Source: Patescibacteria group bacterium (GTDB lineage: Bacteria > Patescibacteriota > Patescibacteriia > JACQRZ01). Taken from it: 64,000 nt of DNA. A program made the translations under genes and the position numbers. The notes under the pieces were generated by a model. The model worked only from the letters and a program-made list of their open reading frames with translations. It did not search any database and was not told the DNA's origin. Numbering within the stretch: position 1 is the stretch's first letter; each line of letters starts with the position of its first letter. Of the stretch, positions 22,890-39,007 are shown in pieces. The DNA lies in assembly GCA_038065125.1 (NCBI GenBank), contig JBBTRP010000006.1, positions 172 through 64,171 of the forward strand. Reading direction: 5' to 3'.

Positions 22890-23873
22890 ATGGTCATTAC
22901 CAGAACACCATTTCGCATCTCATTTTTCGGCGGAGGCAGCGACTATCCGACGTGGTTTAATCAGCACAGTGGAGCCGTGCTGTCCGCAACGATCAATAAG
23001 TACTGCTATATTAGCTGCCGCTATCTGCCGCCATTTTTTGAGCATACAAGCAGGGTCGTGTGGTCAAAAATCGAGTCAGTGAAAGGTGTCGACGAGATTC
23101 AGCACCCAGTTGTGCGTCATGCCCTGCAATGGCTCGGCATTTCCGAAGGTCTGGAGATCCACCACAATGCCGACCTTCCGGCACGTGCGGGCCTGGGATC
23201 AAGTTCGTCGTTTACGGTCGGTTTTCTCAATGCCCTCCAAGCACTGCAAGGCCGACTAAGCACTAAGTATCAGTTGGCACTCGACGCAATTCATGTCGAG
23301 CAGGAGCTCTTGAAAGAGAACGTCGGCTGTCAGGATCAAACGGCAGCAGCGTTCGGGGGGCTCAACAAGATCGAGTTCGGCGGAATGGAACAGGTGAAGG
23401 TCTCGCCCATGGTTTGTTCGCGCGAGCGCTTGAAAGAGCTGGAGAGTCATTTGCTTCTGTACTTTACGGGTATGTCGCGAACGGCATCTGAGATTGCTGC
23501 GGAGCAAATCGCAAATATTCCCGACAAAGAACGCGAGATACGCGAGATGGTCAGGTTCGTCGACGAGGCGGTCACCATTCTTCACTCGCTCCAGTGGGCG
23601 GATCAGTTTGGCAAGCTTTTGCATGAGACCTGGCTTTTAAAAAAAACGCTTTCGAGCAAGATTGCAAACCCTCTTATCAATTCGTTATACGAAGAGGCGA
23701 GAAGTGCAGGCGCTCTTGGCGGCAAGTTGTTGGGCGCGGGTGGCGGAGGTTTTATGCTCTTTTTTGCGAAGCCGGAAAATCATCCAGCTATCAAGCAGCG
23801 CCTCGCAAATTTTTTACATGTACCGTTTGAGTTTGAGACGTCAGGGAGTCAGATCATTTACCATGCAAATTAA
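22890..23873 (+). CDS. GHMP-family sugar kinase, D-glycero-alpha-D-manno-heptose-7-phosphate kinase (HddA)-like
   Basis: TPFRISFFGGGSDYP N-terminus. GHMP motif PARAGLGSSSSF. C-terminal GAGGGGF. Confidence 0.65.
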   Translation: MVITRTPFRISFFGGGSDYPTWFNQHSGAVLSATINKYCYISCRYLPPFFEHTSRVVWSKIESVKGVDEIQHPVVRHALQWLGISEGLEIHHNADLPARAGLGSSSSFTVGFLNALQALQGRLSTKYQLALDAIHVEQELLKENVGCQDQTAAAFGGLNKIEFGGMEQVKVSPMVCSRERLKELESHLLLYFTGMSRTASEIAAEQIANIPDKEREIREMVRFVDEAVTILHSLQWADQFGKLLHETWLLKKTLSSKIANPLINSLYEEARSAGALGGKLLGAGGGGFMLFFAKPENHPAIKQRLANFLHVPFEFETSGSQIIYHAN

Positions 23874-24976
23874 TGAGAATTGGAATAATCGGCGCCGGTA
23901 TTATTGGTCTTTCGTGCGCACGAGAGTGCCGGAAGATTTTTCCGAACGCAGAGATTATCGTCTTTGAAAAAAATGCCGCGGCATTTTCTGAAAACAGCAT
24001 CCACAACAGCGGAGTCGTACATTCGGGCATTCATCAAAAATTAGGGTCGCTCCGCAGTTCATTCGCGCACACCGGAAGCAAGCTACTGACCGATTACTGC
24101 CAGCAAAATGAAATCCTATGCAAACCGACTGCGATGCTCATCGCTATTGCCCCCGCCGATATGCCCTCGCTTATCCGAGAGGCATCAATACTGTTTCGAC
24201 TCTGGGAAAACTCCCGTCGACAGAGGATTCGGCCGCCGAAGGTCGTGTTTAAAAAAGATATATACGCGCTTGAGCCAAACATTTCAGCGATCTGCGGACT
24301 ACTGCTCTCAGGCATTTGGGTGATCGATCAGAAGTCATTGGGCACGCAACTAGTCCGTGAGATGGAAGGTATCGGTGTAGACATTCGTTTACGGACGGAA
24401 ATAAAAAGCATTTCATTTAATGGCGAGTATGCGGTGTTCGGTACCGATACTGCCGAGGAGAGTGTTACCCACGTAATTAATTCAGCAGGACTGCACGCCG
24501 ACATCATCGCGCGCATGGCAGGATTCGACGCGCCAGAGATCTCTCCAGTACGTGGCGAATACTATGAAGTCTTCAGTGATAAAAAAAATCTCATTCATTC
24601 ACACCTCATCTATCCTGCGCTCCCCCCAGGCCATCCGGTGAAAGGTATACACTTCACAAAAACTGCTGACGGACGACTTCTCATCGGGCCAAATGCCACC
24701 GCCTGGGATCGGCGTGAGGACGATGCTTCGGACCAGAGCCCTAAGAAGGAGTTTGTCGACGCGGTCAAAAAATTTTTGCCTTCCCTCACACCAGAGGACA
24801 TACAGTGGGCCTACTCCGGCATTCGCCCCAAGATCGGTGGGAGCGCTGAAGAGCATGACTTTATTGTGCGGAGAGAGCAATCCAGAATTCCATTTGTCAA
24901 TCTCATCGGCATCGAATCCCCGGGCTTTACCGCAAGTTTTGCCCTCGCAGAATACGCTGCAGGACTCCTACTGTGA
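23873..24976 (+). CDS. FAD-dependent oxidoreductase (DAO/LhgO-like)
   Basis: MRIGIIGAGIIGLSCA dinucleotide-binding motif. DAO-family C-terminus (GIESPGFTAS). Confidence 0.75.
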   Translation: MRIGIIGAGIIGLSCARECRKIFPNAEIIVFEKNAAAFSENSIHNSGVVHSGIHQKLGSLRSSFAHTGSKLLTDYCQQNEILCKPTAMLIAIAPADMPSLIREASILFRLWENSRRQRIRPPKVVFKKDIYALEPNISAICGLLLSGIWVIDQKSLGTQLVREMEGIGVDIRLRTEIKSISFNGEYAVFGTDTAEESVTHVINSAGLHADIIARMAGFDAPEISPVRGEYYEVFSDKKNLIHSHLIYPALPPGHPVKGIHFTKTADGRLLIGPNATAWDRREDDASDQSPKKEFVDAVKKFLPSLTPEDIQWAYSGIRPKIGGSAEEHDFIVRREQSRIPFVNLIGIESPGFTASFALAEYAAGLLL

Positions 24977-24981
24977 CCGAC

Positions 24982-26436
24982 TTATTTTTTGCAGCGGTAT
25001 ACCGCATAACCGTATCCGGGAATCGTGTTTGCAATAGGGAGTCTCCAAAGAGCAACCTTGCCCCGAGCATAGTTTTCCTCCACAAGCGTACAGCTGCCAT
25101 TCGCCACTTGCGGAGCCTTGGTTTCACCGGTTGAAAATTGCTGTCGTATGAGCAGGCGGTTCGCATTCGAAAGATCTTCGCGAGGCTCTTCAATCAGGGA
25201 GTAGTTCTCCGTAAGTGGCCACATTCGTTGAGTGACCAGGAATAGATCGGATACATGAGATGACTTCGTAAGGCGCAGAAACGACTCGCGCGCTTCATCC
25301 AGGGAGATACCCTCCGTTGCATAGAGGGGGAATAGATAGAGTAGTCGAATAAATCCAATGCATGTTAGCGTAAGGGTTGTCCATGATAGAACGCGTAATG
25401 CTTTATATCGACTTTTGATAGCCGCAGTCGCTACCGCTATGAACATGAGAGGAGCAAAAATGTATATATACGAAAGATGGCGCGGCGCGACTGCACCGAA
25501 AGCAATAACCAGAAAAGCAATAAAGAAAGAAGTGAAGAAAAGAGGGGACTTGATTGAAGAACGATGAATGAAGGAATAGAGTCCAAGGAGAACCACGCTT
25601 AGGATGGCGAGTAGGCCATAGAAGGTCGTATTTGGCGCGAAAAAGTGGTAGTATAAAAAACTCCATGACAGGCCCTTTTTATAGATCAATGTGAAGTGGT
25701 CGGCAATTCCATTGAGTGTGGTTGGGAGTCCATAGGGAGTGAGTGAGACAATCAATGCAAACGAGATTGCAGCGGTAAGCCCTATTACCCCCAAGTTTAG
25801 CAGACCTCGTTTCCAAGGGACGGAGTAGAAAATATACAGGGCAATGAGGCCCGCAACGAGCGCAGCAGCGGTAATATGCATTGACCCAATACTGCCAAGG
25901 AAAATGCCAAGTACGATGGCGAACGGCAGCGAATCGGCACGAGCGCGCATGAAGTACATCAATACCGCGATCAATAGTACGATCGGTCGTAGAGGTGTTT
26001 CTGGTCGGAAATCATTAGCAAGGAGAGTGGTGGAAAGGCCGCAGAGCGCAAGGGCCGTCGCCACGCTTAGTCGCCATTTAGAAATTTGCTCGCTCGAATT
26101 AACAATGCGCACGAGTAAGAGTGAGGTGAGAATGAGTGTGACAATATCGATTCCGGCAAGAGCGAGGTCGAGACCCCGAGGTGTTGCAGTAGGAGAGATA
26201 GCGGCGAGCAACAATGGGTAGAGCGGGGGGTAAAAAATTAGGCGGTGCTGTCCGGGATCAATCGCATGTCCAATTGCGTTTATTTCATTAATAAGAGGCT
26301 TGCCATGCATAGTGTTGATGGCAGTTGGGCCGAAGTAAATCGAATCTCCCTCGAAGACCGGGTAGGACCAGTATCCAAAAATGAGATATATCGCCGCGAG
26401 AAGTAAAATTGTCCCAATTAAAAATACCCGGTGCAT
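24982..26436 (-). CDS. polytopic membrane protein, putative GT-C fold glycosyltransferase
   Basis: About 11 predicted TM segments. Acidic EGD motif in the first extracytoplasmic loop. C-terminal soluble domain. Confidence 0.5.
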   Translation of the reverse strand: MHRVFLIGTILLLAAIYLIFGYWSYPVFEGDSIYFGPTAINTMHGKPLINEINAIGHAIDPGQHRLIFYPPLYPLLLAAISPTATPRGLDLALAGIDIVTLILTSLLLVRIVNSSEQISKWRLSVATALALCGLSTTLLANDFRPETPLRPIVLLIAVLMYFMRARADSLPFAIVLGIFLGSIGSMHITAAALVAGLIALYIFYSVPWKRGLLNLGVIGLTAAISFALIVSLTPYGLPTTLNGIADHFTLIYKKGLSWSFLYYHFFAPNTTFYGLLAILSVVLLGLYSFIHRSSIKSPLFFTSFFIAFLVIAFGAVAPRHLSYIYIFAPLMFIAVATAAIKSRYKALRVLSWTTLTLTCIGFIRLLYLFPLYATEGISLDEARESFLRLTKSSHVSDLFLVTQRMWPLTENYSLIEEPREDLSNANRLLIRQQFSTGETKAPQVANGSCTLVEENYARGKVALWRLPIANTIPGYGYAVYRCKK

Positions 26437-26438
26437 AG

Positions 26439-27143
26439 GTGGAGCGGTTTCAGCACTTGTATGCTAGTATGGCAACTATGGTCTGTCAAAAGAGTTCGTC
26501 CCCCGTCATTTTTTTTGACGTAGACGGGACGTTGATTCTCCGTACATCATGCGAATATTTACTACTGCGACACCTATTGATACGCGGAAATTTTCCTCTC
26601 ACCAATCTGGTTCATGCTTTGGTGTGGAATCTTGGGAAAGCAAGGACTTTTTTTTACTCCCTCCATTTCAATAAATTGTGGTATAGGGGATACTCAGTCG
26701 ACGGACTCAACAAGCATATCGATGCAGTATTTCCATCAATTTGCAGACACATATCGCAAGGGGCCATCAATGAAATGCGGCGAGCTCATGACGGCGGATC
26801 TCGCATCGTCCTTCTTTCTGCGGCTCCCGATATTCTCGTGCGCCGGATAGGGGAGTATATTGGCTATCATGAGGTGGTTGCAACATCCTTCGAGATTCAT
26901 AATACTATCTACACAGGCAGAGTAACTGGCATTGTACCTTATGCCGCCGGGAAGATTGCCGCAGCTAGCGCATATGCCGCGTCACTAGGTGTTCGTTTAA
27001 GCGATTGCACCGCATATGCAAATGCAGGCTCAGACATTCCGCTCCTGGAGAGCGTCGGGACGGCGTATGCAGTGAATCCGTCAGTGGGACTGCAAAAACA
27101 CGCAATGAGTAAGGGATGGAGTATTTTAAGATTCAACACATAA
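26439..27143 (+). CDS. HAD-superfamily subfamily IB hydrolase (phosphatase)
   Basis: FFDVDGTLI motif I. Alternative start at 26469. Confidence 0.7.
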   Translation: MERFQHLYASMATMVCQKSSSPVIFFDVDGTLILRTSCEYLLLRHLLIRGNFPLTNLVHALVWNLGKARTFFYSLHFNKLWYRGYSVDGLNKHIDAVFPSICRHISQGAINEMRRAHDGGSRIVLLSAAPDILVRRIGEYIGYHEVVATSFEIHNTIYTGRVTGIVPYAAGKIAAASAYAASLGVRLSDCTAYANAGSDIPLLESVGTAYAVNPSVGLQKHAMSKGWSILRFNT

Positions 27144-27152
27144 CAATTTAAT

Positions 27153-28163
27153 ATGAAGACGCTTGTAACAGGTGTTCCGGGTTGGCTTGGATCGCGACTC
27201 ACGTCGGTTCTGACAAACCCTAACGACCCCCTGAATCATTTTTCCGGTTATTCAGATCGGGAAGTTCGCTGTTTCGTGCTTCCCGGAATGAATGCAACGG
27301 GGATTAACCATGCAGAGATTATCGCTGGAGATGTGCGAGATGCGGACTCTCTTCATAGGGCCCTTGATGGGGTTGAAACAGTTTTCCACTTAGTCGGCAT
27401 TATCCACCCAAAAAAAATATCAGACCTTTATGCTGTCAACAGGGAAGGTTTTCGAAATTTGTTGAACGCCGCTGAGGCCGCGGGGGTGCGCCGAGTCGTG
27501 TTCGTGAGCAGTAACTCACCCGCGGGAACAAACAAAAACAGGAACATTCTCATGAAGGAGAGCGATACCCCTCAGCCCTACAAGCATTACGGCATAAGTA
27601 AATTGGAAGCCGAGCAAATCGGACTGGATTTTGTGAAGAGAGGGAGAATTGAGGTCGTTATTGTGAGGCCCTGCTGGTTTTATGGTCCCGGCCAGCCGGA
27701 CCGCCAGACCAGATTCTTTCGAATGATTAAAAGCGGAAAGCCGCTCATGTTCGGTGATGGAAAAAATCTTCGCAGCATGTCGTATGTTGACAATACCATC
27801 CAGGGCCTCCTTCTGGCCGAGAAAACTCCTGACATCTCAGGGAGGACGTATTGGATAGCTGATGAAAAGCCATACTCTACAGAAGAGATCTATTGGACAA
27901 TTGCCGAACTCCTTGACGTGCGCCATCTCACACCGCGTCATCTTCCAGAACTCGTTTCGAAGTGTTGTGAACTTGCTGACGACCTACTCCAGGCTGCGGG
28001 CATATATTCCCAAGAGATTCACGTCGCAGGAGAAATGGTAAAGGATATTGCGTGCAGTATTGAAAAAGCGAAATTAGAGCTTGGGTACGCACCAGAGATT
28101 TCACTTCGAGAGGGAATGAAGAGATCGATCGAATGGTGTCGGCAGCGCGGTGATGAGATCTAA
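27153..28163 (+). CDS. NAD-dependent epimerase/dehydratase (extended SDR)
   Basis: MKTLVTGVPGWLGSRL. YxxxK (YGISKLEAE). Confidence 0.8.
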   Translation: MKTLVTGVPGWLGSRLTSVLTNPNDPLNHFSGYSDREVRCFVLPGMNATGINHAEIIAGDVRDADSLHRALDGVETVFHLVGIIHPKKISDLYAVNREGFRNLLNAAEAAGVRRVVFVSSNSPAGTNKNRNILMKESDTPQPYKHYGISKLEAEQIGLDFVKRGRIEVVIVRPCWFYGPGQPDRQTRFFRMIKSGKPLMFGDGKNLRSMSYVDNTIQGLLLAEKTPDISGRTYWIADEKPYSTEEIYWTIAELLDVRHLTPRHLPELVSKCCELADDLLQAAGIYSQEIHVAGEMVKDIACSIEKAKLELGYAPEISLREGMKRSIEWCRQRGDEI

Positions 28164-29184
28164 TATGGTATTAGTGACAGGTGGCAGCGGATTTATTGGA
28201 AGCGAGCTTGCTCGACAGCTCTCAGTGTCCGGAGAGCGCGTTCGGGTTCTCGATGTTGTTGGTTTCCCTCAGCCGAATCCAGACATTGAATTTTGTCATG
28301 GCGATATACGGAACAGAGATGATGTTGAAAAGAGTCTAGAAGGGGTAAAAGACGTCTACCACTGTGTCGCACTCGTCCCGCTTGCAAAGGCCGGGCGAAA
28401 GTTTTGGGAGGTGAATGTTGGGGGGACTCAGGTGCTTCTCGATCAATGCGAAAAAAAAAATGTGAGGCATATTGTCCACATCTCCTCCAGCGCTGTATAT
28501 GGCACGCCCGAGTGCCCCATTACTGAAAAGACGCCGTTTCATCCTCTTGAAATTTACGGGAGAGCGAAGTATGCCGGAGAACGATTGGTATTTGACTATC
28601 AGGCGAGGGGCGGATCTGCAACCATTATCCGTCCACGAACCGTTCTGGGCGATTTCCGGCTGGGCATTTTCGATATCCTGTTTGAGTGGATTTTTGAAAA
28701 TAGGAACATCTATCTGATTGGCAATGGGCAGAATCCATTCCAGTTTGTACATGTCGCCGATGTCGTCTCGGCCTGTATGCAGGCGTGTTCATTGAGGCGC
28801 ACCGGCGCATACAATATCGGAACCGACCGATACGTAACACTCAAGGCCGACCTGGAGTCGTTCATCTTGCAAGTTGAGTCACGCTCTTCTATTAGGTGTA
28901 TTTCTGAATATCTCGCGATTCCTATGCTGGAGCTTCTCGACTTGCTCAAGTTCTCACCGCTTGCGCCGTGGCACTACAAAACCTATCACAAGCCATTTTA
29001 TTTTGACATTTCAAAATCCGTCAAGGAACTTGAGTGGAGGCCGCTCTACTCGAATGTCGATATGCTTGTTAGTTCATACCGCTGGTTTATTGCGAACAGG
29101 GGGGTGAGCTCGAAAACGCCCGGCTCCACCCACCACACCTCGCCAAAGCAGAAGCTATTAAAAGTCCTTAAATGGTTCTCATAA
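28150..29184 (+). CDS. NAD-dependent epimerase/dehydratase (extended SDR)
   Basis: VLVTGGSGFIGSEL. YGRAKYAGE. Start could be 28165. Confidence 0.8.
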   Translation: MMRSNMVLVTGGSGFIGSELARQLSVSGERVRVLDVVGFPQPNPDIEFCHGDIRNRDDVEKSLEGVKDVYHCVALVPLAKAGRKFWEVNVGGTQVLLDQCEKKNVRHIVHISSSAVYGTPECPITEKTPFHPLEIYGRAKYAGERLVFDYQARGGSATIIRPRTVLGDFRLGIFDILFEWIFENRNIYLIGNGQNPFQFVHVADVVSACMQACSLRRTGAYNIGTDRYVTLKADLESFILQVESRSSIRCISEYLAIPMLELLDLLKFSPLAPWHYKTYHKPFYFDISKSVKELEWRPLYSNVDMLVSSYRWFIANRGVSSKTPGSTHHTSPKQKLLKVLKWFS

Positions 29185-30071
29185 AAAAAATACAAGGTTT
29201 ACTACTGCTTGCCCGTCCGTATCAATGGCATAAAAATGTACTCGTCCTAGCCGCGCTTTTATTTTCCGGGCAACTTGAGAGTGTGTCCTCAGTTCAGCTT
29301 TCACTCGTGGCATTCTTTGCTTTTTGCCTCCTTTCTTCAGCGATCTATGTAATAAATGACATTCGCGATTGCGATGACGATCGTCATCACCCAGTAAAAC
29401 AAAAACGCCCGCTTCCGACAGGAGATGTGACATTGATTCACGCATGGGTACTGAGTATAGTTCTTCTCGTTTGCGGAATGTTGGTAAGTTTCTTTCTTGG
29501 AATTTCTTTTTTTGCGGCTGCAGGTGCATATGTCGTTTTGAACGGTTGTTATACATTTGCCCTGAAGAGGATTCCACTTCTGGAGATTTTTTCAGTCGCT
29601 ATGTGTTATGTGCTTCGTGTTGTTGCTGGCGCCTTTGCGATCCATGCTCCCGTAACACCCTATCTACTGATTGCAAGTATGTTGCTATCCATTCTCCTCA
29701 TTCTTGGAAAGCGCAGGCATGAGCGTATGCTCTTTCTTGAAACGGTCCCATTACACCGACCGGTTCTTGCTCAGTATTCCATACAATTTTTGGACCAGCT
29801 TACTACAATATCAGCCGCGGCGACTCTTATTGTGTATATTCTCTATACCCTTGACGAGCACACAAGGACACTTACAGGAAGTTCACTCATGCCCCTCACT
29901 ATACCGTTTGTCATCTATGGTCTCTTCCGCTATCTTTTGATTGTTGGTAATCTTGATCGCGGCGGCGATCCGTCGAGAGATCTTCTTCTCGACAAACCTC
30001 TTCTCGCCACGTCGTTGGTATGGGTAGGAAGCATTATCCTCATTATTTATTCTGCCCGCCACTCCTTATGA
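29172..30071 (+). CDS. UbiA-family prenyltransferase, decaprenyl-phosphate phosphoribosyltransferase (DPPR synthase)-like
   Basis: NDIRDCDDDRHHPVKQKRPLPTG (NDxxDxxxD + basic patch). About 8 TM. Confidence 0.75.
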   Translation: MVLIKKIQGLLLLARPYQWHKNVLVLAALLFSGQLESVSSVQLSLVAFFAFCLLSSAIYVINDIRDCDDDRHHPVKQKRPLPTGDVTLIHAWVLSIVLLVCGMLVSFFLGISFFAAAGAYVVLNGCYTFALKRIPLLEIFSVAMCYVLRVVAGAFAIHAPVTPYLLIASMLLSILLILGKRRHERMLFLETVPLHRPVLAQYSIQFLDQLTTISAAATLIVYILYTLDEHTRTLTGSSLMPLTIPFVIYGLFRYLLIVGNLDRGGDPSRDLLLDKPLLATSLVWVGSIILIIYSARHSL

Positions 30072-31405
30072 AGCATGATCCGCTCCAAATCCAATTGTTT
30101 CGTAGTAAGCGCGTTCTTGTTTTAGGAGACATCATGATTGATCATTACATCTACGGCGATTCAAACAGAATTTCTCCAGAAGCCCCAGTTCCTATAGTAA
30201 ATCGTAAGTCAGAATCCTACCATCTTGGCGGAGCCGCTAATGTGGCGCACGCAATTACGTCTCTTGGTGCAGAGGTTCTCCTGTGTGGAGTGGTTGGTAA
30301 TGATGATGCAAAGTCGATCGTTTTTAACCTCCTCCACAAGGCCGCAATCGCATCGCACGGCATTTTCTTTTCGGACACAAAAAAAACGGTCATCAAACAA
30401 CGCATCGTCGTCAACGGTCATCACATGCTTCGTCTTGACAGCGACGACACCCCGTACTTCTCTGAGGAGGATTGTCGGCGTTTTACGGCCATGGTCGAGC
30501 CGTTGATTGTTTGGGCAGACGTGGTGCTTTTTTCCGACTACGGAAAAGGCGTGTGTTCCCCGTCGCTGGTCAAACGAATCCTTGCACACGCAAAAGCGCA
30601 TGGCAAAGCCGTGATTGCAGATTTTAAACCAGGAAATGACGCACGCTTTTGCGGGGCGAACCTTATTGTTCCGACCGAGCAGGAGACGCGAGAACTTACC
30701 GGATGCAGTACATTTATGGAGGCGGGCCCACGTCTCGTGAGTGAATACCAGTCAGATGTGTTGGTGACACGCGGAAAAGAAGGAATGACGATTTTCTTCA
30801 AAAATGGGGACACCACTTCCATTCCCCCTAATCCCATGAACGAGTTTGACGTTACGGGAGCAGGGGATACGATCCTTGCGATTCTCGGTTTGGCATATGC
30901 GGTCGGAATGCCGCTGCATGAGGCAGCAACACTTGCGAATCGAGGAGAGGGGATTGTGGTGCAAAAGCCCGGAACTGCGACCGTAAGTCTTGAAGAACTA
31001 ATTTCGAGTGTCGAAGACAATCGTCATATCGAAGGCGTTAGTCTTGTGCCCAAGATCTGGGGATATGAGAAATGGTTGGAAAATAGTGATAAGTACTGTT
31101 CAAAAATTCTTTCACTCAATAAAGGGTTCCAGTGCAGCCTTCACTACCACAAAATGAAGGACGAGATGTTTCTTATACTTAAGGGGCATGTACGCATGGA
31201 GGTTGGCGACACCGTTTCACATATGCGCGAAGGTAACTTTGTTCGTATCGCACCCGAGACCCCGCATCGATTTACTGGAATTGACAATTCGATGATTTTG
31301 GAGGTTAGTACCTATCACGACGAGGGTGACTCATATCGAATACAAGAGAGTAGGAAACTAGACGAGTATGAATTCAGCTTCCTCGCTCCCGGTCGCACTA
31401 TATGA
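30068..31405 (+). CDS. HldE domain I-like (pfkB) D-heptose-7-phosphate kinase fused to a C-terminal metal-binding cupin domain
   Basis: RfaE-I motifs (VLVLGDIMIDHYIYGDSNRISPEAPVPIV, GGAANVA, DVTGAGDT). C-terminus contains the cupin motif G(x5)HxH(x4)E(x6)G as GFQCSLHYHKMKDEMFLILKG. ATGA overlap with the upstream gene sets the start at 30068. Confidence 0.75.
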   Translation: MKHDPLQIQLFRSKRVLVLGDIMIDHYIYGDSNRISPEAPVPIVNRKSESYHLGGAANVAHAITSLGAEVLLCGVVGNDDAKSIVFNLLHKAAIASHGIFFSDTKKTVIKQRIVVNGHHMLRLDSDDTPYFSEEDCRRFTAMVEPLIVWADVVLFSDYGKGVCSPSLVKRILAHAKAHGKAVIADFKPGNDARFCGANLIVPTEQETRELTGCSTFMEAGPRLVSEYQSDVLVTRGKEGMTIFFKNGDTTSIPPNPMNEFDVTGAGDTILAILGLAYAVGMPLHEAATLANRGEGIVVQKPGTATVSLEELISSVEDNRHIEGVSLVPKIWGYEKWLENSDKYCSKILSLNKGFQCSLHYHKMKDEMFLILKGHVRMEVGDTVSHMREGNFVRIAPETPHRFTGIDNSMILEVSTYHDEGDSYRIQESRKLDEYEFSFLAPGRTI

Positions 31406-31926
31406 GAAGAGCTGTGTTCTTTGATCGGGATAACACTTTAAATAAAGATGCTGGGTACACACATACAATCGAAGAATACCAACTTCTGCCCAGCGTTCTG
31501 TCCACTCTCAAGAGGTTGGAGAAAACAAATTTTTTGAAAATCATTATCACTAATCAGTCTGGCATTGCGAGAGGATATTATGCGGTAGAGCATTTCGATG
31601 GGTTTATGACTCACATGCTCAATGATTTTAAGGGCAATGGAGTTACAATAGATGGCGTGTATCACTGTGCTCATTTACCTGATGATTCGTGCAACTGCCG
31701 AAAACCGCAGCCCGGCATGTTTTTTCAAGCTGCCACAGATCACGGCGTTGATCTTTCAATCAGTTGGTCCGTTGGTAACTCCCACTCAGATGTCGTCGCC
31801 GGAAAACGTGCGGGAGTCCGAACGATAATGCTCGGCGCAAGTAATACTGTTGACGAGGAGGCGACACCTCACCATAGTGTCGAGACGCTTGATGCTGCGG
31901 TCGATATTATTATGGGCACTCAATGA
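31402..31926 (+). CDS. gmhB: D,D-heptose 1,7-bisphosphate phosphatase (HAD-IIIA)
   Basis: VFFDRDNTLN motif I. CxC zinc-binding loop (DDSCNCRKP). Confidence 0.8.
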   Translation: MRRAVFFDRDNTLNKDAGYTHTIEEYQLLPSVLSTLKRLEKTNFLKIIITNQSGIARGYYAVEHFDGFMTHMLNDFKGNGVTIDGVYHCAHLPDDSCNCRKPQPGMFFQAATDHGVDLSISWSVGNSHSDVVAGKRAGVRTIMLGASNTVDEEATPHHSVETLDAAVDIIMGTQ

Positions 31927-33455
31927 AAGTCAGCCAGCTTGGGAAAAATATTATTACGTCATTCGTCGGCCAGGGCATTCTCCTGGTTTCTTCTTTTATC
32001 TCAACACACGTTATATATCATCACTTAGGACGAGATGTATTGGGACTTCTGAATTTTTCGCTTCTGATCACATCCTTTTTGGTAAGCTTTTTGGATTTTG
32101 GCATCAGTGTGGTTGCGACACGCGAGTTGGCCGCCTATCGATCAACGAGGCCAGAATACACTGAGTCGATTATTCGTTCACTTTCGTTTATCTCACTCCT
32201 TACGTTCTGCCTCTCTTCTCTTGTGATCGCGCTCCTCTCGCCACTTCTATTGAACGGTTGGGTGCGTCTTGAAAATATTTCTGTTGTTAATTCCTGGGTG
32301 CTTGTCTCCTTTGTATGTATCTCTGTTGGGCTTTTGCTGGGAATTCTGAGAACATTTTACAGTATTGTCCTCAACGGCTATGAGCGTGTTGACGCCGTAC
32401 AATGGTCGCAGGTTTCGTTCGTCGCGATCCAGCAGATTGGACTTATTACACTACCGCTTATCAAGAGTAGCTTATTTGTTATTGCTGCGTGGTATTTGGT
32501 ATCGGGCCTGGCGGGAACGGCTCTATTCGGGTGGCGAGCATTTCGTGTTGCGGGGTGGCCGTTGTTTCGGCCGCGCGCATCCTTTTTTTTCCTCCGTAAT
32601 AATGCGAGGTATGCCGTGGAAAATTTTTTTGCAAGTTTTTCAGGAACACTCATTTTCCAGTCGGACAAGTGGCTCATGAGCAGATTTTTCCCGATCGGAA
32701 TGCTGGGGTTTTACACATCCACGCAGGCGCTAGCCGGTAAGGGTACGATCCTTGCAAGCTCGGTGGTTAGCGCAATTTTCCCCTCGATTTCACATGACGT
32801 GGAGAATGTGAGCGTAAATGAGTGGCGGAAACGGTATGCGGTTGCGCAAGATATTTGTTTAGTTACGTCGGGGTGTCTACTTGCTGCCATCTATTTTTTT
32901 GGGACAGATCTTTTGACCGGAATTTTTTCTGCAGAGATTGCCCTACAGATGAAGTATCCGCTGTTCATCTTGTGTGTGGGGGCGTTTTTTCACGCGAGTC
33001 TCTATGTGCCCAGCTGGGTTGCTATTGCGATGAAGAAGACCGATATGCTTGTGAAGGCAAATTGTGTAAGCATGGTAATAGTTTTTCCGTTGTTGTGGTT
33101 CCTTGCCAGTAAATTCGGAATACTCGGCCTCTCGACAATCACGCTTCTGTTCATTTGCGTCCAATATGTTTTTTTTATCCCGCGCTTTGCAGCCGAGTGC
33201 ATCCAATCGTCAGCGTGCCTATGGTATCGTCATGCATTCGCTCTTGCAATGTCTGCGGGCGTGACGTATGGTAGTTTCTATGCTCTCTCGACTTTTTTTC
33301 CTGGGATCGCGATCCGAGTAGCGTTCTATTGCGCTGGCACTGCGGCCTTCCTTGTAATCAGTAGTCAGTTGGTTAGCGTTCGACTTGCTGATGTCCTACG
33401 CGAATTAATTACAAACGCTTTTTCAAAAATACTTCCTTACCGTAACATCGTATGA
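31923..33455 (+). CDS. wzx: O-antigen/polysaccharide flippase (Wzx, MOP superfamily)
   Basis: 510 aa, 12-14 TM. PST-family order. Confidence 0.8.
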   Translation: MKVSQLGKNIITSFVGQGILLVSSFISTHVIYHHLGRDVLGLLNFSLLITSFLVSFLDFGISVVATRELAAYRSTRPEYTESIIRSLSFISLLTFCLSSLVIALLSPLLLNGWVRLENISVVNSWVLVSFVCISVGLLLGILRTFYSIVLNGYERVDAVQWSQVSFVAIQQIGLITLPLIKSSLFVIAAWYLVSGLAGTALFGWRAFRVAGWPLFRPRASFFFLRNNARYAVENFFASFSGTLIFQSDKWLMSRFFPIGMLGFYTSTQALAGKGTILASSVVSAIFPSISHDVENVSVNEWRKRYAVAQDICLVTSGCLLAAIYFFGTDLLTGIFSAEIALQMKYPLFILCVGAFFHASLYVPSWVAIAMKKTDMLVKANCVSMVIVFPLLWFLASKFGILGLSTITLLFICVQYVFFIPRFAAECIQSSACLWYRHAFALAMSAGVTYGSFYALSTFFPGIAIRVAFYCAGTAAFLVISSQLVSVRLADVLRELITNAFSKILPYRNIV

Positions 33456-34669
33456 GTGGCACGATTACCGAGTGTCGGGTCTGCGCCTCGCCCATTCTTG
33501 AACCGGTCATCGATCTTGGATCGCAGCCATGGTGTGGCAATTTTCTGAAAGAAGATGCAGTTGGTACGGAGCCGCTATTTTCTTTGCGGTTAGTATATTG
33601 TGAGCGATGTTGTACACCGCAACTCGACTACACCGTGCCAAAGGAGTATATGTTTTCCGACCATACATATCTCTCGAATATCACATACACGCTGAGTAAT
33701 CACTTTAAGTCAGTTGCGCAGGAGGTGAAGCAGCGATTTTTCAGGGCACAAGACACGCCATCAGTTCTTGACATAGGCTCAAACGACGGTCTCGCACTCA
33801 AACACTACCAAGACCTTGGATTTGATGTATTAGGCGTTGAGTCAGCTAAAACTGCGGCACGTCTTGCGCGGGAAGCGGGGATACCAACAGAGAATGCGTT
33901 CTTCGATCTTGGGTTTGCAGAGCGACTCGGTCGCACGTTCGATGTGGTGAGCGCCTCAGGAGTCTTTTTCCACCTCGAAGATCTCCATTCGGTCGTAGAA
34001 GGGATTAAAAGAGTCCTCGCTCACGACGGAATATTCGTTGTACAGTTTTTGTACATGAAGAGAATTATAGAAAACCGGGCATTTGATCAGATCTACCACG
34101 AACACTTGCTGTACTATACTCTCAAGAATATTGCAACACTTCTCAATAGTCATGGAATGGAGATGTTTGATGCATATCTATCCTCGATTCATGGTGGTTC
34201 GATCATCGGATTCATCACGCATAAGGGGAGACAGCCCCAGTCACAGCGCCTCGGCGACCTTCGATCCATCGAGGATCGAGATGAGACAAACATGAAAAAA
34301 ACATACCTTTCTTTCGCAAAATCGATTGAGGTGATGAAGGTAGAAAATCTTGAGTACCTTGAGAGAAAAAAATCTCAAGGTAAAACCATCTTCGGCTTTG
34401 GCGCACCTGCAAAAGGAAATACACTTCTGAACTATTTTAATATCGGCGGGCAGTACCTTGATCTTTTGGTCGAGAAAAATCGTCTTCGTAAAAATTTATA
34501 CTCGCCAGGACAGCACCTTAAAATCGTGATGGAAGACGAGCTCGCCGCCCCTCCGGATGTGTACTATGTGTTGGCATGGAACTTTAAGGACGAGATCCTC
34601 GCTAAGAATGCGCACCTTATCGAAAAAGGAGTTGAGTTTTATTTTCCGGTCGACCCTCTCGCCGTATGA
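33452..34669 (+). CDS. NDP-hexose C-methyltransferase (TylCIII/NovU/EvaC family) #1
   Basis: N-terminal Zn ribbon (CRVCASP..CERCCTPQL). SAM motif (VLDIGSNDG). C-methyltransferase C-terminal domain. Confidence 0.85.
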   Translation: MSGTITECRVCASPILEPVIDLGSQPWCGNFLKEDAVGTEPLFSLRLVYCERCCTPQLDYTVPKEYMFSDHTYLSNITYTLSNHFKSVAQEVKQRFFRAQDTPSVLDIGSNDGLALKHYQDLGFDVLGVESAKTAARLAREAGIPTENAFFDLGFAERLGRTFDVVSASGVFFHLEDLHSVVEGIKRVLAHDGIFVVQFLYMKRIIENRAFDQIYHEHLLYYTLKNIATLLNSHGMEMFDAYLSSIHGGSIIGFITHKGRQPQSQRLGDLRSIEDRDETNMKKTYLSFAKSIEVMKVENLEYLERKKSQGKTIFGFGAPAKGNTLLNYFNIGGQYLDLLVEKNRLRKNLYSPGQHLKIVMEDELAAPPDVYYVLAWNFKDEILAKNAHLIEKGVEFYFPVDPLAV

Positions 34670-35580: not shown

Positions 35581-36625
35581 GTATGTCTTCGTGGAGCACA
35601 AAATCAGCAAGCCCCCACTGCTCAGTATTGGGTAGTACCACCTGCGAGGTCTGAATCATTTTCTTAAAAGCAGGCACCTCCTGCAAGTGAGCAGTCGGTC
35701 GATATTTTTGCGCTTCCCTGCTGTGCTCCTGGTGGTAGATCGGGTGGGGAATTAGTACTTGTAGAAGGCGTGCATAATCGGCAAGAATAACCATGTAACA
35801 GTCGACGCTTCTATCAGCTCCGATTTCCGGATATCCACGCAACCGAGTCCATTGCGTGGAGGGCATAAGAAAGAAGTCGCCACAATTGATAAACAGTCCG
35901 TCAAACGAGCGTCCGTGTTCATCCTCTACTGTCATCTCTTTTCCGACCCCGATCCGATGAAGTTCGCGCATGATTTTTTCTTGTATCATGGCAAGAGAGA
36001 AGAACTCTCTACGATGGCGCAGCTGTGCTTTTTTCCACTCCTTATTATCCAAAATGACTTGGCCGCGAAGGCTTTGAACTCGAAATGAGTGATCTTTGCA
36101 AAAAAACTCCCTCTCGATGGGAGTGAGCTCATCTGGTACGAGATCGTAGAAGTCATATCGCTCAATGCGAAAAAAAGCATTATCAGGTATCTCAATATTT
36201 TTAAGGTATGAGATTAGTCCATCGGATACAATGATGTCTGAGTTCATTGCCGCTATATATGCGCCTCGCGCTCGGCGGATTCCGACATTCTTTGCTAAGA
36301 ATTCGCAGTAGGGGATGTCGTTGGAGTGGGAAGTCTTTTCATGTACATCGGATGGGACAGTGATTATCCGTATGGGTTTCTTTTTGAGTTCATCTGGTAG
36401 ACTTAGTACATCTATGAGTCGGGGCGCATTATCGGGCGGGTTCCACTCGACGATGATCAGCTCCATACTAAGGTCGTGCTTGATGGAGAGTTCCAAAAGC
36501 GTTCGAATACACATGGAAAATCGATGGAGGAAATTACCACCGAAATTGTCGTTCCGAGCGGGAATTACAAAACTATAGCGAGGAGAACCATTCATATACA
36601 CGTTACTATACGAACTGAAAAGCAT
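35516..36625 (-). CDS. hypothetical protein with GT-A-like N-terminus
   Basis: SFVIPARND and AAMNSDII (DxD-like) hint at a GT-A fold. Otherwise unassignable. 65-nt convergent overlap with the upstream gene end. Confidence 0.45.
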   Translation of the reverse strand: MLFSSYSNVYMNGSPRYSFVIPARNDNFGGNFLHRFSMCIRTLLELSIKHDLSMELIIVEWNPPDNAPRLIDVLSLPDELKKKPIRIITVPSDVHEKTSHSNDIPYCEFLAKNVGIRRARGAYIAAMNSDIIVSDGLISYLKNIEIPDNAFFRIERYDFYDLVPDELTPIEREFFCKDHSFRVQSLRGQVILDNKEWKKAQLRHRREFFSLAMIQEKIMRELHRIGVGKEMTVEDEHGRSFDGLFINCGDFFLMPSTQWTRLRGYPEIGADRSVDCYMVILADYARLLQVLIPHPIYHQEHSREAQKYRPTAHLQEVPAFKKMIQTSQVVLPNTEQWGLADFVLHEDILMHSTDSNTTQSSVSAPGEAV

Positions 36626-36681
36626 TGGGTCAACCCATTGACGAGAAAGGTCTTGCCTGGAATACTATCTTCACTGTACGA

Positions 36682-37914
36682 ATGACTATGGACACTATTA
36701 GTTGCTGTAGAGTCTGTCAAAACCCGCGCCTACATAATTTTTTTCATTTGGGCGATCATCCGCTTGCCAACTCGCTTCTCTCAAATCCAAATGATCCGGA
36801 GCAGAAATACCCGTTATCTTTAAGCTGGTGCCAAGATTGTTCGCTCGTACAACTAAATGAGACCGTAGACCCTAAGGTGCTCTTTTCACAGTACGTCTGG
36901 GTAACGGGGACATCGCAGGGCGCACGAGAGTATGCCGAAGTGTTCTGCAAAGAGCTCTTAGAACGGATTGAGCTTTCTGCCGGAGACTTTGTTCTTGAAA
37001 TTGCAAGCAATGATGGGACATTTTTAAAACCTTTTCGCGCACGAGGAATCACTGTCGTAGGCATCGATCCAGCTGAAAATATTATCAAAACAGCTAACGA
37101 GGATGGTATCCCAACTGAGCCAGTGTTCTGGGGGGTCGAATCTGCTCATGTATTGCGAAAAAAATATGGGAGGCCGCGTGTTATTTTTGCGCGCAACGTA
37201 CTGCCTCATGTCGCCAATACGCAAGACTTTGTTCGCGCGATTGCTGACACGGTCGTTGAGGATGGGCTTGTTGCCATCGAGGTTCATTATGCCCGGACCA
37301 TCCAGAAAGAGTTACATTACGACTCCATTTATCATGAGCATCTTTGCTACTTTACCGTTGAGAGTCTCGAGCGACTGTTGCGCGAGGCAGGATTGTACGT
37401 ATTCGATGTGAATGAGAGTCCTTTGAATGGTGGGTCAATAGTTGTCTATGCTTCTCGCACTCCGAAGCAGACGTCACCGCGACTTGATGGGAGTCGAGCG
37501 AATGAGCGAGAGAGTAAAATAAATTCCCTCGAGAAGTGGCAAGAGTTTTCTCGCGCTGCCACGCGCCACGCCTCAGAGTTTCGAGCCCTTCTTTCGAGAG
37601 TCGGTGGAAATCACGTCGTTGGATGGGGGGCCTCTGCAAGGAGCTCAACGCTTTTAAATTATTGTGGTATTACGCGAGAGACAATAGCGGAAGTTGCAGA
37701 CATGAACCCACTCAAGCAGGGATTATTCACGGCAGGAACCGGAATTCCAATTCGAGCACCGGGTGTCGTTTTTCAGACAAAGCCTGACCTTGTCGTTCTC
37801 CTTGCATGGAACTTTACTGACGAGATTCGTGAAAGTCTCCGGACCGACTTTTCTTATTCCGGAGCAGTCATTACCCCTCTACCAGGAGCTCCGACACTCC
37901 ACCCTTCATCGTAA
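36682..37914 (+). CDS. NDP-hexose C-methyltransferase (TylCIII/NovU/EvaC family) #2
   Basis: CRVCQNP..CQDCSLVQL Zn ribbon. VLEIASNDG. Paralog of 33452-34669. Start taken at the MTMDT Met, since the longer ORF abuts a divergent gene. Confidence 0.8.
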   Translation: MTMDTISCCRVCQNPRLHNFFHLGDHPLANSLLSNPNDPEQKYPLSLSWCQDCSLVQLNETVDPKVLFSQYVWVTGTSQGAREYAEVFCKELLERIELSAGDFVLEIASNDGTFLKPFRARGITVVGIDPAENIIKTANEDGIPTEPVFWGVESAHVLRKKYGRPRVIFARNVLPHVANTQDFVRAIADTVVEDGLVAIEVHYARTIQKELHYDSIYHEHLCYFTVESLERLLREAGLYVFDVNESPLNGGSIVVYASRTPKQTSPRLDGSRANERESKINSLEKWQEFSRAATRHASEFRALLSRVGGNHVVGWGASARSSTLLNYCGITRETIAEVADMNPLKQGLFTAGTGIPIRAPGVVFQTKPDLVVLLAWNFTDEIRESLRTDFSYSGAVITPLPGAPTLHPSS

Positions 37915-37942
37915 CTTCTCCCATATTTTTAATCAGGAATAT

Positions 37943-38392
37943 ATGCTTGACGGAGTTCAAGTCACGCCACTAAAAAAAATTCCAGATGTGCGCGGCACCA
38001 TTATGCCTGGTGTCCGTTGTGACACGTTGATGAATCCTTTCGGCGAGGTCTATTTCAAGAAGCTGTATGCAGGTATTATCAATGGGTGGCATGTACATGA
38101 GACGCTGACGCTGAATTACATCTGTATTGCGGGAATGATCAAGATCGTTCTTTACGACATGCGGGAGAGCTCTCTGACATTCAAGCAGTTGCAGGAAGTG
38201 TATCTTGGTGATGACAACTATGCGCTCCTCCACATTCCTCCTGGGATTGCGAATGCCGTAAAAAGTATCGCCTTACCTCACGCACTTTTTTGCAACATCG
38301 CATCTGAGCCGCATAATCCGAATATAAAGTACAGAAGAATCGATCCGCACTCGAGCGAGATACCATACGATTGGAGCAAAAAAGATTTTTAA
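37943..38392 (+). CDS. RmlC/FdtA-like cupin sugar-nucleotide 3,5-epimerase or 3,4-ketoisomerase
   Basis: 149 aa from the internal ATG. RmlC-like segments (HVHETL, LLHIPPGIANAVKSI). Confidence 0.7.
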   Translation: MLDGVQVTPLKKIPDVRGTIMPGVRCDTLMNPFGEVYFKKLYAGIINGWHVHETLTLNYICIAGMIKIVLYDMRESSLTFKQLQEVYLGDDNYALLHIPPGIANAVKSIALPHALFCNIASEPHNPNIKYRRIDPHSSEIPYDWSKKDF

Positions 38393-38404
38393 GAAGTCCA
38401 CCCG

Positions 38405-39007
38405 ATGACGGACGTTAATGTATTTATCGAGACCTTTACGCATAAAGTCACTACTGCGCTTTGCTCTGTTTCAGTCGAGCAGATAAAATCGGCAATTGCA
38501 GCCCTTCGAGCGTGTTGCACTCGTTCGGGTCGCGTGTATGTTTTCGGAAACGGTGGTTCCTATGCAATGGCAGGGCATTGGTCAAGCGACTTGAATAAAG
38601 CAATTCTGTATAGGAGGGGCCGCAAGCGAACACAGAGTGATTTCTGTGTCGTTCGCTTGCCGATGAGTGACGCCGAATTAACCGCATGGGCAAACGACAG
38701 TGGCTATGATAGTGTATTTGCGGGTCCCCTGATGCATCTTGTCCGACCCGCCGATCTTGTAATTGCTCTTTCATGTTCCGGAAACTCTCTCAATGTTCTC
38801 AATGCTGTCAATGTCGCGAAACAGCTGGCCGTTCCCGTCATCGGATTCACTGGCTTTGATGGCGGAGAGCTTAAAAAAATTTCTGATATTTCAATTCATG
38901 TGCAGACAGAAAAGTCGGAGTATGCTGCGGTTGAAAGCGTTCACGCGACAGTCCTGAATCTCTTAACTGACTTCTTCAACACGAACGACAGTACGCTTGC
39001 GATATGA
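38405..39007 (+). CDS. gmhA: phosphoheptose (sedoheptulose-7-phosphate) isomerase, SIS domain
   Basis: GNGGS, ANDSGYDSVF, SCSGNSLNV, GFTGFDGG match GmhA signatures. Confidence 0.85.
   Translation: MTDVNVFIETFTHKVTTALCSVSVEQIKSAIAALRACCTRSGRVYVFGNGGSYAMAGHWSSDLNKAILYRRGRKRTQSDFCVVRLPMSDAELTAWANDSGYDSVFAGPLMHLVRPADLVIALSCSGNSLNVLNAVNVAKQLAVPVIGFTGFDGGELKKISDISIHVQTEKSEYAAVESVHATVLNLLTDFFNTNDSTLAI

Follow-up and report, generated by a model that had tools for sequence, protein, structure and literature searches.

A HAD-SDR-SDR-UbiA operon and a divergent GT-C gene in a Patescibacteria-labelled genome: a probable lipid-linked pentofuranose branch of a surface-polysaccharide locus

The closest described counterpart of the locus treated here is the three-component, extracytoplasmic pentofuranose glycosylation system of Citrobacter youngae O1/O2, which has been demonstrated experimentally (Kelly et al., PNAS 2024, PMC11127046). 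In this system, a HAD-fused UbiA-type synthase (ORF15) makes undecaprenyl-phosphate-ribofuranose from phosphoribosyl pyrophosphate (PRPP), a single cytoplasmic GalE-like short-chain dehydrogenase/reductase (SDR; ORF13) converts the ribofuranose (Ribf) donor to the xylofuranose (Xylf) donor, a small transporter (ORF14) is the presumed flippase, and a GT-C enzyme of family GT136 (ORF12, with D31 as the proposed catalytic residue) transfers the pentofuranose in the periplasm. According to the same source, arabinofuranose (Araf) glycans go together with DprE1/DprE2 homologues, and lyxofuranose (Lyxf) has never been observed in a glycan (PMC11127046). The route from PRPP through lipid-linked ribose and optional epimerisation to a GT-C was generalised only in 2024, from a few cultured Proteobacteria and Actinobacteria. 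Here, we compare with it a gene cluster in a 64-kb contig from Hainich groundwater metagenomes (“the window,” by which we mean the whole of this stretch), whose genes are found in identical form in an NCBI metagenome-assembled genome (MAG) labelled “Patescibacteria group bacterium.” The cluster is an operon for a HAD phosphatase, two SDRs (SDR1 and SDR2), and a UbiA-type synthase, beside a divergently encoded GT-C membrane protein. We consider it probable that the operon and the GT-C together form a side-branch of a Wzx/Wzy-type locus, and decorate an extracytoplasmic glycan with a pentofuranose.

Related systems are known from other bacteria. The noeCHOP/noeCNHOP operon for Nod-factor arabinosylation in Azorhizobium and Rhizobium sp. 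IRBG74 combines a DPPR-synthase homologue with a membrane transferase (PMC5080398). Like the pathway proposed for the window, this operon and the Araf system of Pseudomonas aeruginosa pilin (TfpW) lie outside the Actinobacteria and employ such a pair to decorate a surface or secreted glycoconjugate; unlike the window, these systems have DprE1-like, DprE2-like, and GtrA proteins (as in the Rhizobium phaseoli plasmid locus). The ArnC/ArnT system for undecaprenyl-phosphate-linked 4-amino-4-deoxy-L-arabinose (Ara4N) and the GtrA/B/V system for O-antigen glucosylation differ at the first step, as their donor is made by a GT2 enzyme from a nucleotide sugar, and not by a UbiA-type enzyme from PRPP.

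The UbiA-type protein of the window is encoded at 29172-30071 on the + strand (299 amino acids; Pfam UbiA 92.8 bits). Judged by its sequence, it is a polyprenyl-phosphate 5-phosphoribosyltransferase (PPPRS) of the DPPR synthase type, not a quinone, heme, or chlorophyll prenyltransferase, because the NCBIfam DPPR synthase models score far above those of other UbiA subfamilies and because it matches the mycobacterial enzyme Rv3806c. The two DPPR synthase models, NF008977 and NF008978, give 226.2 bits (cut-off 234) and 205.9 bits (cut-off 207); the other subfamilies reach at most 61 bits, with the exception of the HAD-fused PRK08238 model at 170 bits. Rv3806c (PDB 8j8j) matches over the full length in phmmer (E = 1.1e-33), with 32% identity over 278 positions. 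A first-pass annotation of this DNA had set down in advance, as the refutation of its reading, that the protein would group with quinone or chlorophyll prenyltransferases; this did not occur (226 versus 61 bits).

The DPPR-synthase motif that the first-pass annotation had picked out is present at residues 62-84 (N62-D63-I-R-D66-C-D-D-D70 ... K76-Q-K-R79-P-L-P-T-G). Its N62, D63, D66, and D70 do not vary among 30 homologues, and they align with N73, D74, D77, and D81 of Rv3806c, the NDxxDxxxD motif in the region of the first cytoplasmic loop, in which N73 and D77 are Mg/PRPP ligands. The residues of Rv3806c that contact PRPP and Mg2+ are known from its structure (PMC10994848), and 10 of the 12 are identical in the window protein: R15, K21, Y59, N62, D66, K76, R79, Y127, K132, and Y146. 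The two changes are conservative in one case (Q135 to N124) and a loss in the other (K208 to P197, with R196 adjacent). The binders of phosphoribose and pyrophosphate that separate PPPRS from the UbiA enzymes acting on prenyl diphosphates are, in Rv3806c numbering, R22, K28, Y70, K87, R90, Q135, Y138, K143, Y157, and K208.

The synthase gene is the fourth in an operon on the + strand that begins with the HAD gene (26439) and continues with SDR1, SDR2, and UbiA, the genes abutting or overlapping, before running on into heptose genes and the gene of a Wzx-like flippase. All six open reading frames (ORFs) named in the first-pass annotation were found where it had placed them and in the families that it had given, including a HAD rather than a PAP2 phosphatase and two SDRs beside UbiA. 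The HAD-IB phosphatase lies at 26439-27143 on the + strand (with ATG 26469 or 26478 as possible starts), scores 88.5 bits against Pfam PF12710 and 101.2 bits against TIGR01490 (cut-off 98.3), and has an intact DxDxT nucleophile motif (FFDVDGTL, residues 25-32). On these features it is a candidate polyprenyl-phosphate-ribose-5-phosphate 5'-phosphatase. HAD-type phosphatases adjoin UbiA in several of the other loci that we fetched (designated by L numbers), namely L089 (PF12710), the Lactococcus plasmid pLLF27D, Paenibacillus (L054), and L099 (a small HAD), and on the rhizobial plasmid pNGR234a the two are fused; a PHP phosphatase takes the place of the HAD in L101 and in Haloterrigena.

Both SDRs are extended SDRs of the cytoplasmic type, neither having a signal peptide, and are encoded adjacent to UbiA. 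SDR1 (27153-28163, + strand; Pfam Epimerase 107.5 bits) carries TGVPGWLG and YGISK motifs, and SDR2 (28150-29184, + strand, with a probable start at 28165; Pfam Epimerase 145.9 bits) carries TGGSGFIG and YGRAK, with Asp35 following beta2. We regard SDR2 as a candidate polyprenyl-phosphate-ribofuranose epimerase/oxidoreductase on the strength of its motifs and position; the TGxxGxxG and YxxxK motifs and the adjacency to UbiA fit an epimerase of the ORF13 type at family level only. A basic amphipathic C-terminal tail (KQxLLKxLKWFS) is conserved in all SDR2-type homologues.

Searching from SDR2, a well-conserved family, revealed that the three genes travel together. SDR1-SDR2-UbiA recurs in the same order, with similar overlaps, in four other independent metagenomic loci (L099, L101, L103, and L104); in each, the SDR2 orthologue is immediately upstream of UbiA and the SDR1 orthologue directly upstream of SDR2, and identities to the window are 54-64% for SDR1, 56-60% for SDR2, and 40-45% for UbiA. 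In a further locus, L089, UbiA, an SDR2-like gene, a GT-C of the same family as that in the window, and a PF12710 HAD all lie on one strand, and this is the closest parallel to the window. Because the three-gene order recurs in four independent loci and L089 has this combination, the clustering of the module genes is more than chance. Conserved synteny thus supports a functional link of the HAD phosphatase, the SDRs, and the GT-C to UbiA. The cassette ranges over bacteria of the candidate phyla radiation (CPR), Bacteroidota-like genomes, and rhizobial symbiosis plasmids. Individual loci hold additional genes: in L101, an SMR/EamA transporter of 122 amino acids, the PHP phosphatase, a PMT_2 GT-C, a weakly AftD-like GT-C, and GtrA, and in L099, the small HAD and two large membrane proteins.

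It is SDR2 that is most consistently partnered with UbiA. Its homologues stand beside UbiA at 32-35% identity in L004, L039, L089, and haloarchaeal plasmids, and at 41-43% identity occur on rhizobial symbiosis plasmids that also bear UbiA. SDR1 is not present in L089, L004, or L039; a 47% homologue of it is paired with SDR2 in Gemmatimonadota. Since the SDR2 type alone accompanies UbiA in several lineages, it may be a self-sufficient epimerase. The tight linkage of SDR1 suggests either an NAD(P)-based oxidase/reductase relay analogous to DprE1/DprE2, or a second epimerisation that would give lyxofuranose. That the SDR1-SDR2 pair makes a lipid-linked pentofuranose donor not described before, in some lineages with the help of a flavoprotein (of the GMC family in rhizobia, possibly of the DAO family here), is an idea that we put forward tentatively and hold to be rather unlikely; candidate products would be D-lyxofuranose, epimerised at both C2 and C3, or an oxidised or otherwise modified pentose.

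The candidate for the extracytoplasmic pentofuranosyltransferase is the polytopic, 484-residue protein encoded at 24982-26436 on the − strand, a GT-C glycosyltransferase of an unclassified family. It has no match in Pfam or NCBIfam, and the best hit of a profile search of the PDB is an unrelated protein (E 0.08). Its GT-C fold is evident from its structural similarity to solved GT-C enzymes, with a polytopic core and a conserved acidic residue in the first external loop, and the divergent, polytopic GT-C-like protein of the first-pass annotation was therefore right at fold level. The EmbC/AftA-like DDx motif that might have been expected is absent; in its place, there is a single near-invariant Asp (D31) just after the first transmembrane (TM) segment. 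A word-indexed homologue search gave one relative, and exhaustive phmmer was needed to retrieve the family, which comprises some 260 cluster representatives that match the window protein in length. Besides D31, P26 is near-invariant among them and R144 invariant, and the beta domain at the C-terminus is conserved.

A scan of metagenomes with a four-sequence alignment of this GT-C family gave 10 loci. From the adjacency in the window and the arrangement of L089, we infer a pentose donor for this protein. The family hidden Markov model (HMM) found no match among the large membrane proteins of L099, L101, and L103, and the membrane proteins beside UbiA in L004 (519 amino acids) and in Lactococcus (533 amino acids) have no detectable relation to the GT-C of the window. 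The GT-C family as a whole is not pentose-specific, since in most of its loci there is no UbiA and the neighbours include GT2 genes. Several loci of the UbiA-less kind (L006, L090, L091, L093, and L097) tend to share upstream neighbours of the Pfam families E1_dh, Transketolase_C, CmcI-type methyltransferase, malic enzyme, and GT2, all of which are confirmed in L006 alone; they may represent another lipid-linked sugar donor route that feeds the family.

A word of caution is due on gene boundaries. Public gene calls shorten three of the genes, giving 442 amino acids for the GT-C and 262 for UbiA (NCBI) and 122 for the HAD (ENA), and thereby lose D31 of the GT-C, R15 and K21 of UbiA, and the DxDxT nucleophile of the HAD. 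We favour the longest ORFs for all three because these are conserved across the families. With them, the GT-C and HAD start codons lie 2 bp apart on opposite strands.

Taken in order, the proposed pathway would run as follows. At the cytoplasmic face, the UbiA-type PPPRS, whose family is established and whose activity is predicted, would move ribose-5-phosphate from PRPP to polyprenyl phosphate. The HAD-IB phosphatase would then strip the 5'-phosphate to leave polyprenyl-phosphate-beta-D-ribofuranose, a role suggested by the recurrent adjacency and by the fused forms. SDR1 and SDR2, to judge from synteny, would reshape the ribose on its lipid in NAD(P)-dependent redox steps. One SDR might do so by itself, in the manner of GalE, or might be one partner of an oxidase/reductase pair, and the product would be an epimeric pentofuranose (Xylf, Araf, or Lyxf). 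Some flippase, possibly the Wzx-like protein, would turn the donor across the membrane. Finally, the GT-C, assigned by its fold and with donor and acceptor proposed from context, would pass the pentofuranose on to the polymer, and D31, which lies in the first external loop, would serve as catalytic base.

How does this compare with C. youngae? We likened the window proteins to ORF12, ORF13, and ORF15 through published descriptions. On that footing, the two systems share a UbiA-type synthase with NDxxDxxxD that uses PRPP or, in the window, is predicted to, and a setting in a polysaccharide locus; the HAD of the window is a candidate counterpart of the HAD-superfamily 5'-phosphatase. The SDRs resemble ORF13 as cytoplasmic, GalE-like proteins with TGxxGxxG and YxxxK that would serve as auxiliary epimerases, and the GT-C resembles ORF12 in that its candidate catalytic Asp follows closely on TM1 and its C-terminus forms a beta-rich domain. 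There are also differences. In the window, the HAD is a separate gene and not a fusion, a conserved pair of SDRs stands in place of one, and the GT-C has 484 residues, a small C-terminal beta domain, and a family without a Pfam model. There is no small flippase with four TM segments, whereas L101 (SMR and GtrA), pNGR234a (SMR), and Lactococcus (GtrA) do have small flippase candidates. The locus is of the Wzx/Wzy type rather than the ABC-transporter type, and the host is a Patescibacteria (CPR) MAG.

The mycobacterial decaprenyl-phosphate-arabinose (DPA) pathway shares with the window a homologous first enzyme (Rv3806c, 32%) with conserved PRPP contacts, and, on the proposed reading, a scheme in which the lipid-borne sugar is dephosphorylated, epimerised by redox chemistry, and passed on by a GT-C on the far side of the membrane. 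It differs in its phosphatase, which is of the PAP2 type (Rv3807c) in mycobacteria and HAD-IB here, and in its epimerising enzymes, the VAO-family DprE1 and the classical SDR DprE2, in place of which the window has two extended SDRs. Of the 30 window proteins compared with Pfam, all of those from 9152-48813 among them, not one has FAD_binding_4, the DprE1-type domain, and among the same 30 proteins, adh_short (the DprE2 type) appeared only as a sub-threshold match of 18.3 bits in SDR2. Canonical DprE1/DprE2 pairs do occur elsewhere, for instance in L075 and in Chondrinema. Because the DprE1, DprE2, and PAP2 types are all absent, the window does not hold the mycobacterial DPA pathway in the strict sense.

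The mycobacterial-like pathway proposed in the first-pass annotation can be kept in part. The logic of a lipid-linked pentofuranose donor and a GT-C is supported at the level of sequence and synteny, through UbiA, the HAD, the SDRs, and the GT-C. An arabinofuranose product is not, as nothing identifies the epimer and the DprE1 and DprE2 types are missing; the role given to the flavoprotein, discussed below, also lacks support. Nor is a “non-orthologous reinvention” of the pathway a new idea: a HAD phosphatase and an SDR epimerase working with a UbiA-type synthase and a GT-C have already been demonstrated by experiment in C. youngae (PMC11127046), so that the literature had made the point as regards the phosphatase and, in principle, the epimerase.

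Several observations weigh against a dedicated pentofuranose module. UbiA scores just under both NCBIfam equivalog cut-offs. For its nearest homologues in GTDB genomes, 80 neighbourhoods were fetched (107 loci beyond the window overall), and in most of the 80, UbiA stands alone or beside DUF362, with no relevant neighbours. Across loci, the HADs that adjoin UbiA resemble one another only weakly (pairwise E = 5e-6 to 0.08). Among the distinct GT-C family loci found, UbiA lies within 10 kb only in the window and L089; the remaining loci have GT2 genes nearby. A small flippase is missing from the 64-kb window: a search for membrane ORFs of 90-200 amino acids free of larger genes gave none of GtrA or SMR size. 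The SDR1/SDR2 pair is found without UbiA within 10 kb in three Gemmatimonadota loci (L100, L102, and L107), and may there use a donor synthesised elsewhere or a different substrate.

Of the other explanations, the one that survives best, although we think it unlikely, is that the 484-residue GT-C is not a pentosyltransferase, but uses another polyprenyl-phosphate sugar or serves as a polymerase or ligase, and that the pentose is moved by a different protein, either one outside the window or one such as that encoded at 45944-47542 on the − strand. The latter is a second polytopic membrane protein (532 amino acids, about seven or more TM segments) that likewise lacks a Pfam match and is not matched by the HMM of the 24982-26436 GT-C family, and may be a further GT-C or else a polymerase. 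This explanation would account for the many GT-C family loci with GT2 genes and no UbiA within 10 kb, and for the unrelated large membrane proteins in other SDR-UbiA loci. It sits poorly with the divergent adjacency of the GT-C gene to the HAD-SDR-SDR-UbiA operon, and with L089, where the family member shares an operon with UbiA and is flanked by the SDR2-like gene and the HAD. A separate Wzy_C protein (62793 onward; Pfam) is, moreover, available for polymerisation or ligation, and ORF12 of C. youngae demonstrates that the GT-C of such a pathway can be donor-promiscuous.

More doubtful is the proposal, made in the first-pass annotation, that a flavoprotein replaces DprE1, oxidising the 2'-OH of polyprenyl-phosphate-ribose for an SDR to reduce the keto form to polyprenyl-phosphate-arabinofuranose. 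The protein in question is a DAO-family FAD oxidoreductase (23873-24976, + strand; L-2-hydroxyglutarate/glycerol-3-phosphate oxidase-like), correctly described there as DAO-type rather than VAO/DprE1-type (Pfam DAO 166.7 bits). Its gene is 1.5 kb from the module. The rhizobial SDR1/SDR2/UbiA clusters conserve a flavoprotein of yet another family, GMC, and in L103 a DprE1-like gene is found at a distance of some 10 kb from the cassette, so a combination of flavoprotein and SDR is not implausible as such. The DAO gene, however, overlaps the stop of a GHMP kinase gene and therefore belongs to the upstream + strand operon, which it closes after GT4-GHMP kinase genes; it is convergent with the GT-C gene. 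No homologue was found in any of the 107 other loci (tblastn, E ≤ 1e-3), including every locus with an SDR-UbiA cassette (L089, L004, L039, L099, L101, L103, L104, L109, and L110 among them), and matches on plasmids were generic, at about 30% identity and in uninformative contexts.

The relatives of the DAO protein point the same way, as the nearest act on small alpha-hydroxy acids or on glycerol-3-phosphate: L-2-hydroxyglutarate oxidase (LhgO) is best in NCBIfam (211.7 bits, cut-off 299), followed by type 2 GlpO (159.4 bits), and L2HGDH (8w75) and GlpO (4x9m) are nearest in the PDB. In C. youngae, a single SDR is enough for epimerisation. Membership of the DAO protein in the pentose module is doubtful, and most likely it serves a different branch of the surface-polysaccharide locus.

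Least probable, in our view, is a pathway without epimerisation, in which UbiA and the HAD make polyprenyl-phosphate-ribofuranose, the GT-C transfers ribofuranose, and the SDRs serve main-chain nucleotide sugars, being neighbours through the density of the locus; it can appeal to six or more further SDR genes that the locus holds for sugar-nucleotide pathways, to known Ribf-only systems (C. youngae O1, Lactococcus pLLF27D), and to the Gemmatimonadota pairs without adjacent UbiA, but the SDR1-SDR2-UbiA order and overlaps are kept in five loci with UbiA 40-45% identical and surroundings otherwise unrelated, and SDR2-like genes flank UbiA in archaea as well.

Relatives of the cassette also occur on plasmids. 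On pNGR234a (L109, 299.6-307.7 kb), an SDR2 homologue (42%), a HAD(PF12710)-UbiA fusion, and, following the fusion, an SDR1 homologue (42%) lie together with SMR transporters, a GMC flavoprotein, and a 658-residue membrane protein, close to nodS/nodU. The same arrangement of SDR2-like, SMR, and GMC genes is seen on pMLa (L111), as far as the record reaches, the match being at its start. Our literature search found no paper specific to the rhizobial SDR/GMC/UbiA cluster, and the pNGR234a cluster offers a genetically tractable model for the cassette.

On haloarchaeal plasmids (L110, Haloterrigena; L112, Natronococcus), a PHP phosphatase and a DPPR synthase are followed by a divergent SDR2-like gene (34%), in whose arm are also found a DolP-Man mannosyltransferase-like GT-C, a GT39 protein, and a DMT transporter; the pairing of SDR2 and UbiA therefore spans Bacteria and Archaea. 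On Lactococcus pLLF27D, a gene for a large membrane protein precedes those for a DPPR synthase, a “HAD-IB family phosphatase,” and GtrA. Rhizobial and haloarchaeal clusters, both uncharacterised by experiment so far as the literature consulted shows, are like the window in having SDR2 orthologues (34-43%), a UbiA-type synthase with a fused HAD or an adjoining PHP phosphatase, and large membrane proteins; they differ in that the rhizobia add the GMC flavoprotein and SMR transporters, and the haloarchaea have the SDR2 type only. In the three Gemmatimonadota loci, the SDR1-like and SDR2-like genes (47-51% identity) flank a conserved, uncharacterised protein of 192-201 amino acids.

The wider UbiA neighbourhoods also contain patterns of their own. 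The expectation that the closest UbiA homologues would all lie in DPA-like clusters was rejected by the 80 GTDB loci, of which only three or four have canonical DprE1-like and DprE2-like genes. In 20 of these 80 genomes, from many phyla, a DUF362 protein of about 360 amino acids is directly downstream of the UbiA/DPPR-synthase homologue (for example, at 3123-4205 in L040). In two GTDB loci, a stand-alone cupin (10843-11250 in L042; about 10888-11226 in L027) is directly downstream of the UbiA homologue, followed in each case by an ORF of 322 amino acids, that of L042 with an SDR-type TGxxGxxG N-terminus. These cupins are 34-38% identical to the cupin domain (residues 343-431) that is fused to an RfaE-like heptose-7-phosphate kinase in the gene after UbiA in the window (30020-31405), and UbiA with a cupin may represent a further, third type of cassette in which sugar remodelling is linked to UbiA. 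The possibility that this PfkB kinase supplies ribose phosphate was considered and rejected, as its best match is the heptose-7-phosphate kinase domain and it adjoins GmhB, which places it in the heptose branch.

By Pfam scans, the window from about 9.1 kb to its end is a single, large surface-polysaccharide locus, with a phosphoglycosyl transferase of the WecA/MraY type (10996-11970, − strand), many GT2 and GT4 genes, sugar-nucleotide genes, heptose-pathway genes, and two C-methyltransferases. The Wzx-like MOP flippase (31923-33455, + strand; 510 amino acids, about nine TM segments; Pfam Polysacc_synt 65 bits) is the sole flippase candidate in the window, and could possibly flip the repeat unit, the lipid-linked pentose, or both. 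The heptose toolkit, at 22890-23873, 30020-31926, 33452-34669, and 36625-41751, comprises an HddA-like GHMP kinase, the RfaE-like kinase, GmhB, an SIS isomerase, a nucleotidyltransferase, a dehydratase, a 3,5-epimerase-like cupin, a reductase, and two sugar C-methyltransferases, and suggests a C-methylated deoxyheptose. So rich a set is unusual for a MAG labelled as Patescibacteria, a lineage thought to lack lipopolysaccharide.

Pentofuranoses (Araf, Ribf, and Xylf) on bacterial surfaces are antigenic and, to our knowledge, absent from animals, and the mycobacterial DPA pathway is a validated drug target. We know of essentially no description of the surface glycans of Patescibacteria (CPR), and on the reading that we prefer, the locus extends the PRPP-based pentofuranose route to a genome of this group. 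It also brings to light an uncharacterised two-SDR cassette that is closely tied to the synthase and conserved across phyla and on rhizobial symbiosis plasmids, a GT-C family of about 260 clusters without a Pfam model, and a position that is filled by phosphatases from two superfamilies or more (HAD and PHP). If the SDR pair does make a new epimer, it would enlarge the known range of sugar donors. Should the product be Araf or Xylf, the pair would be a non-homologous alternative to DprE1/DprE2, and insensitive to drugs directed at DprE1.

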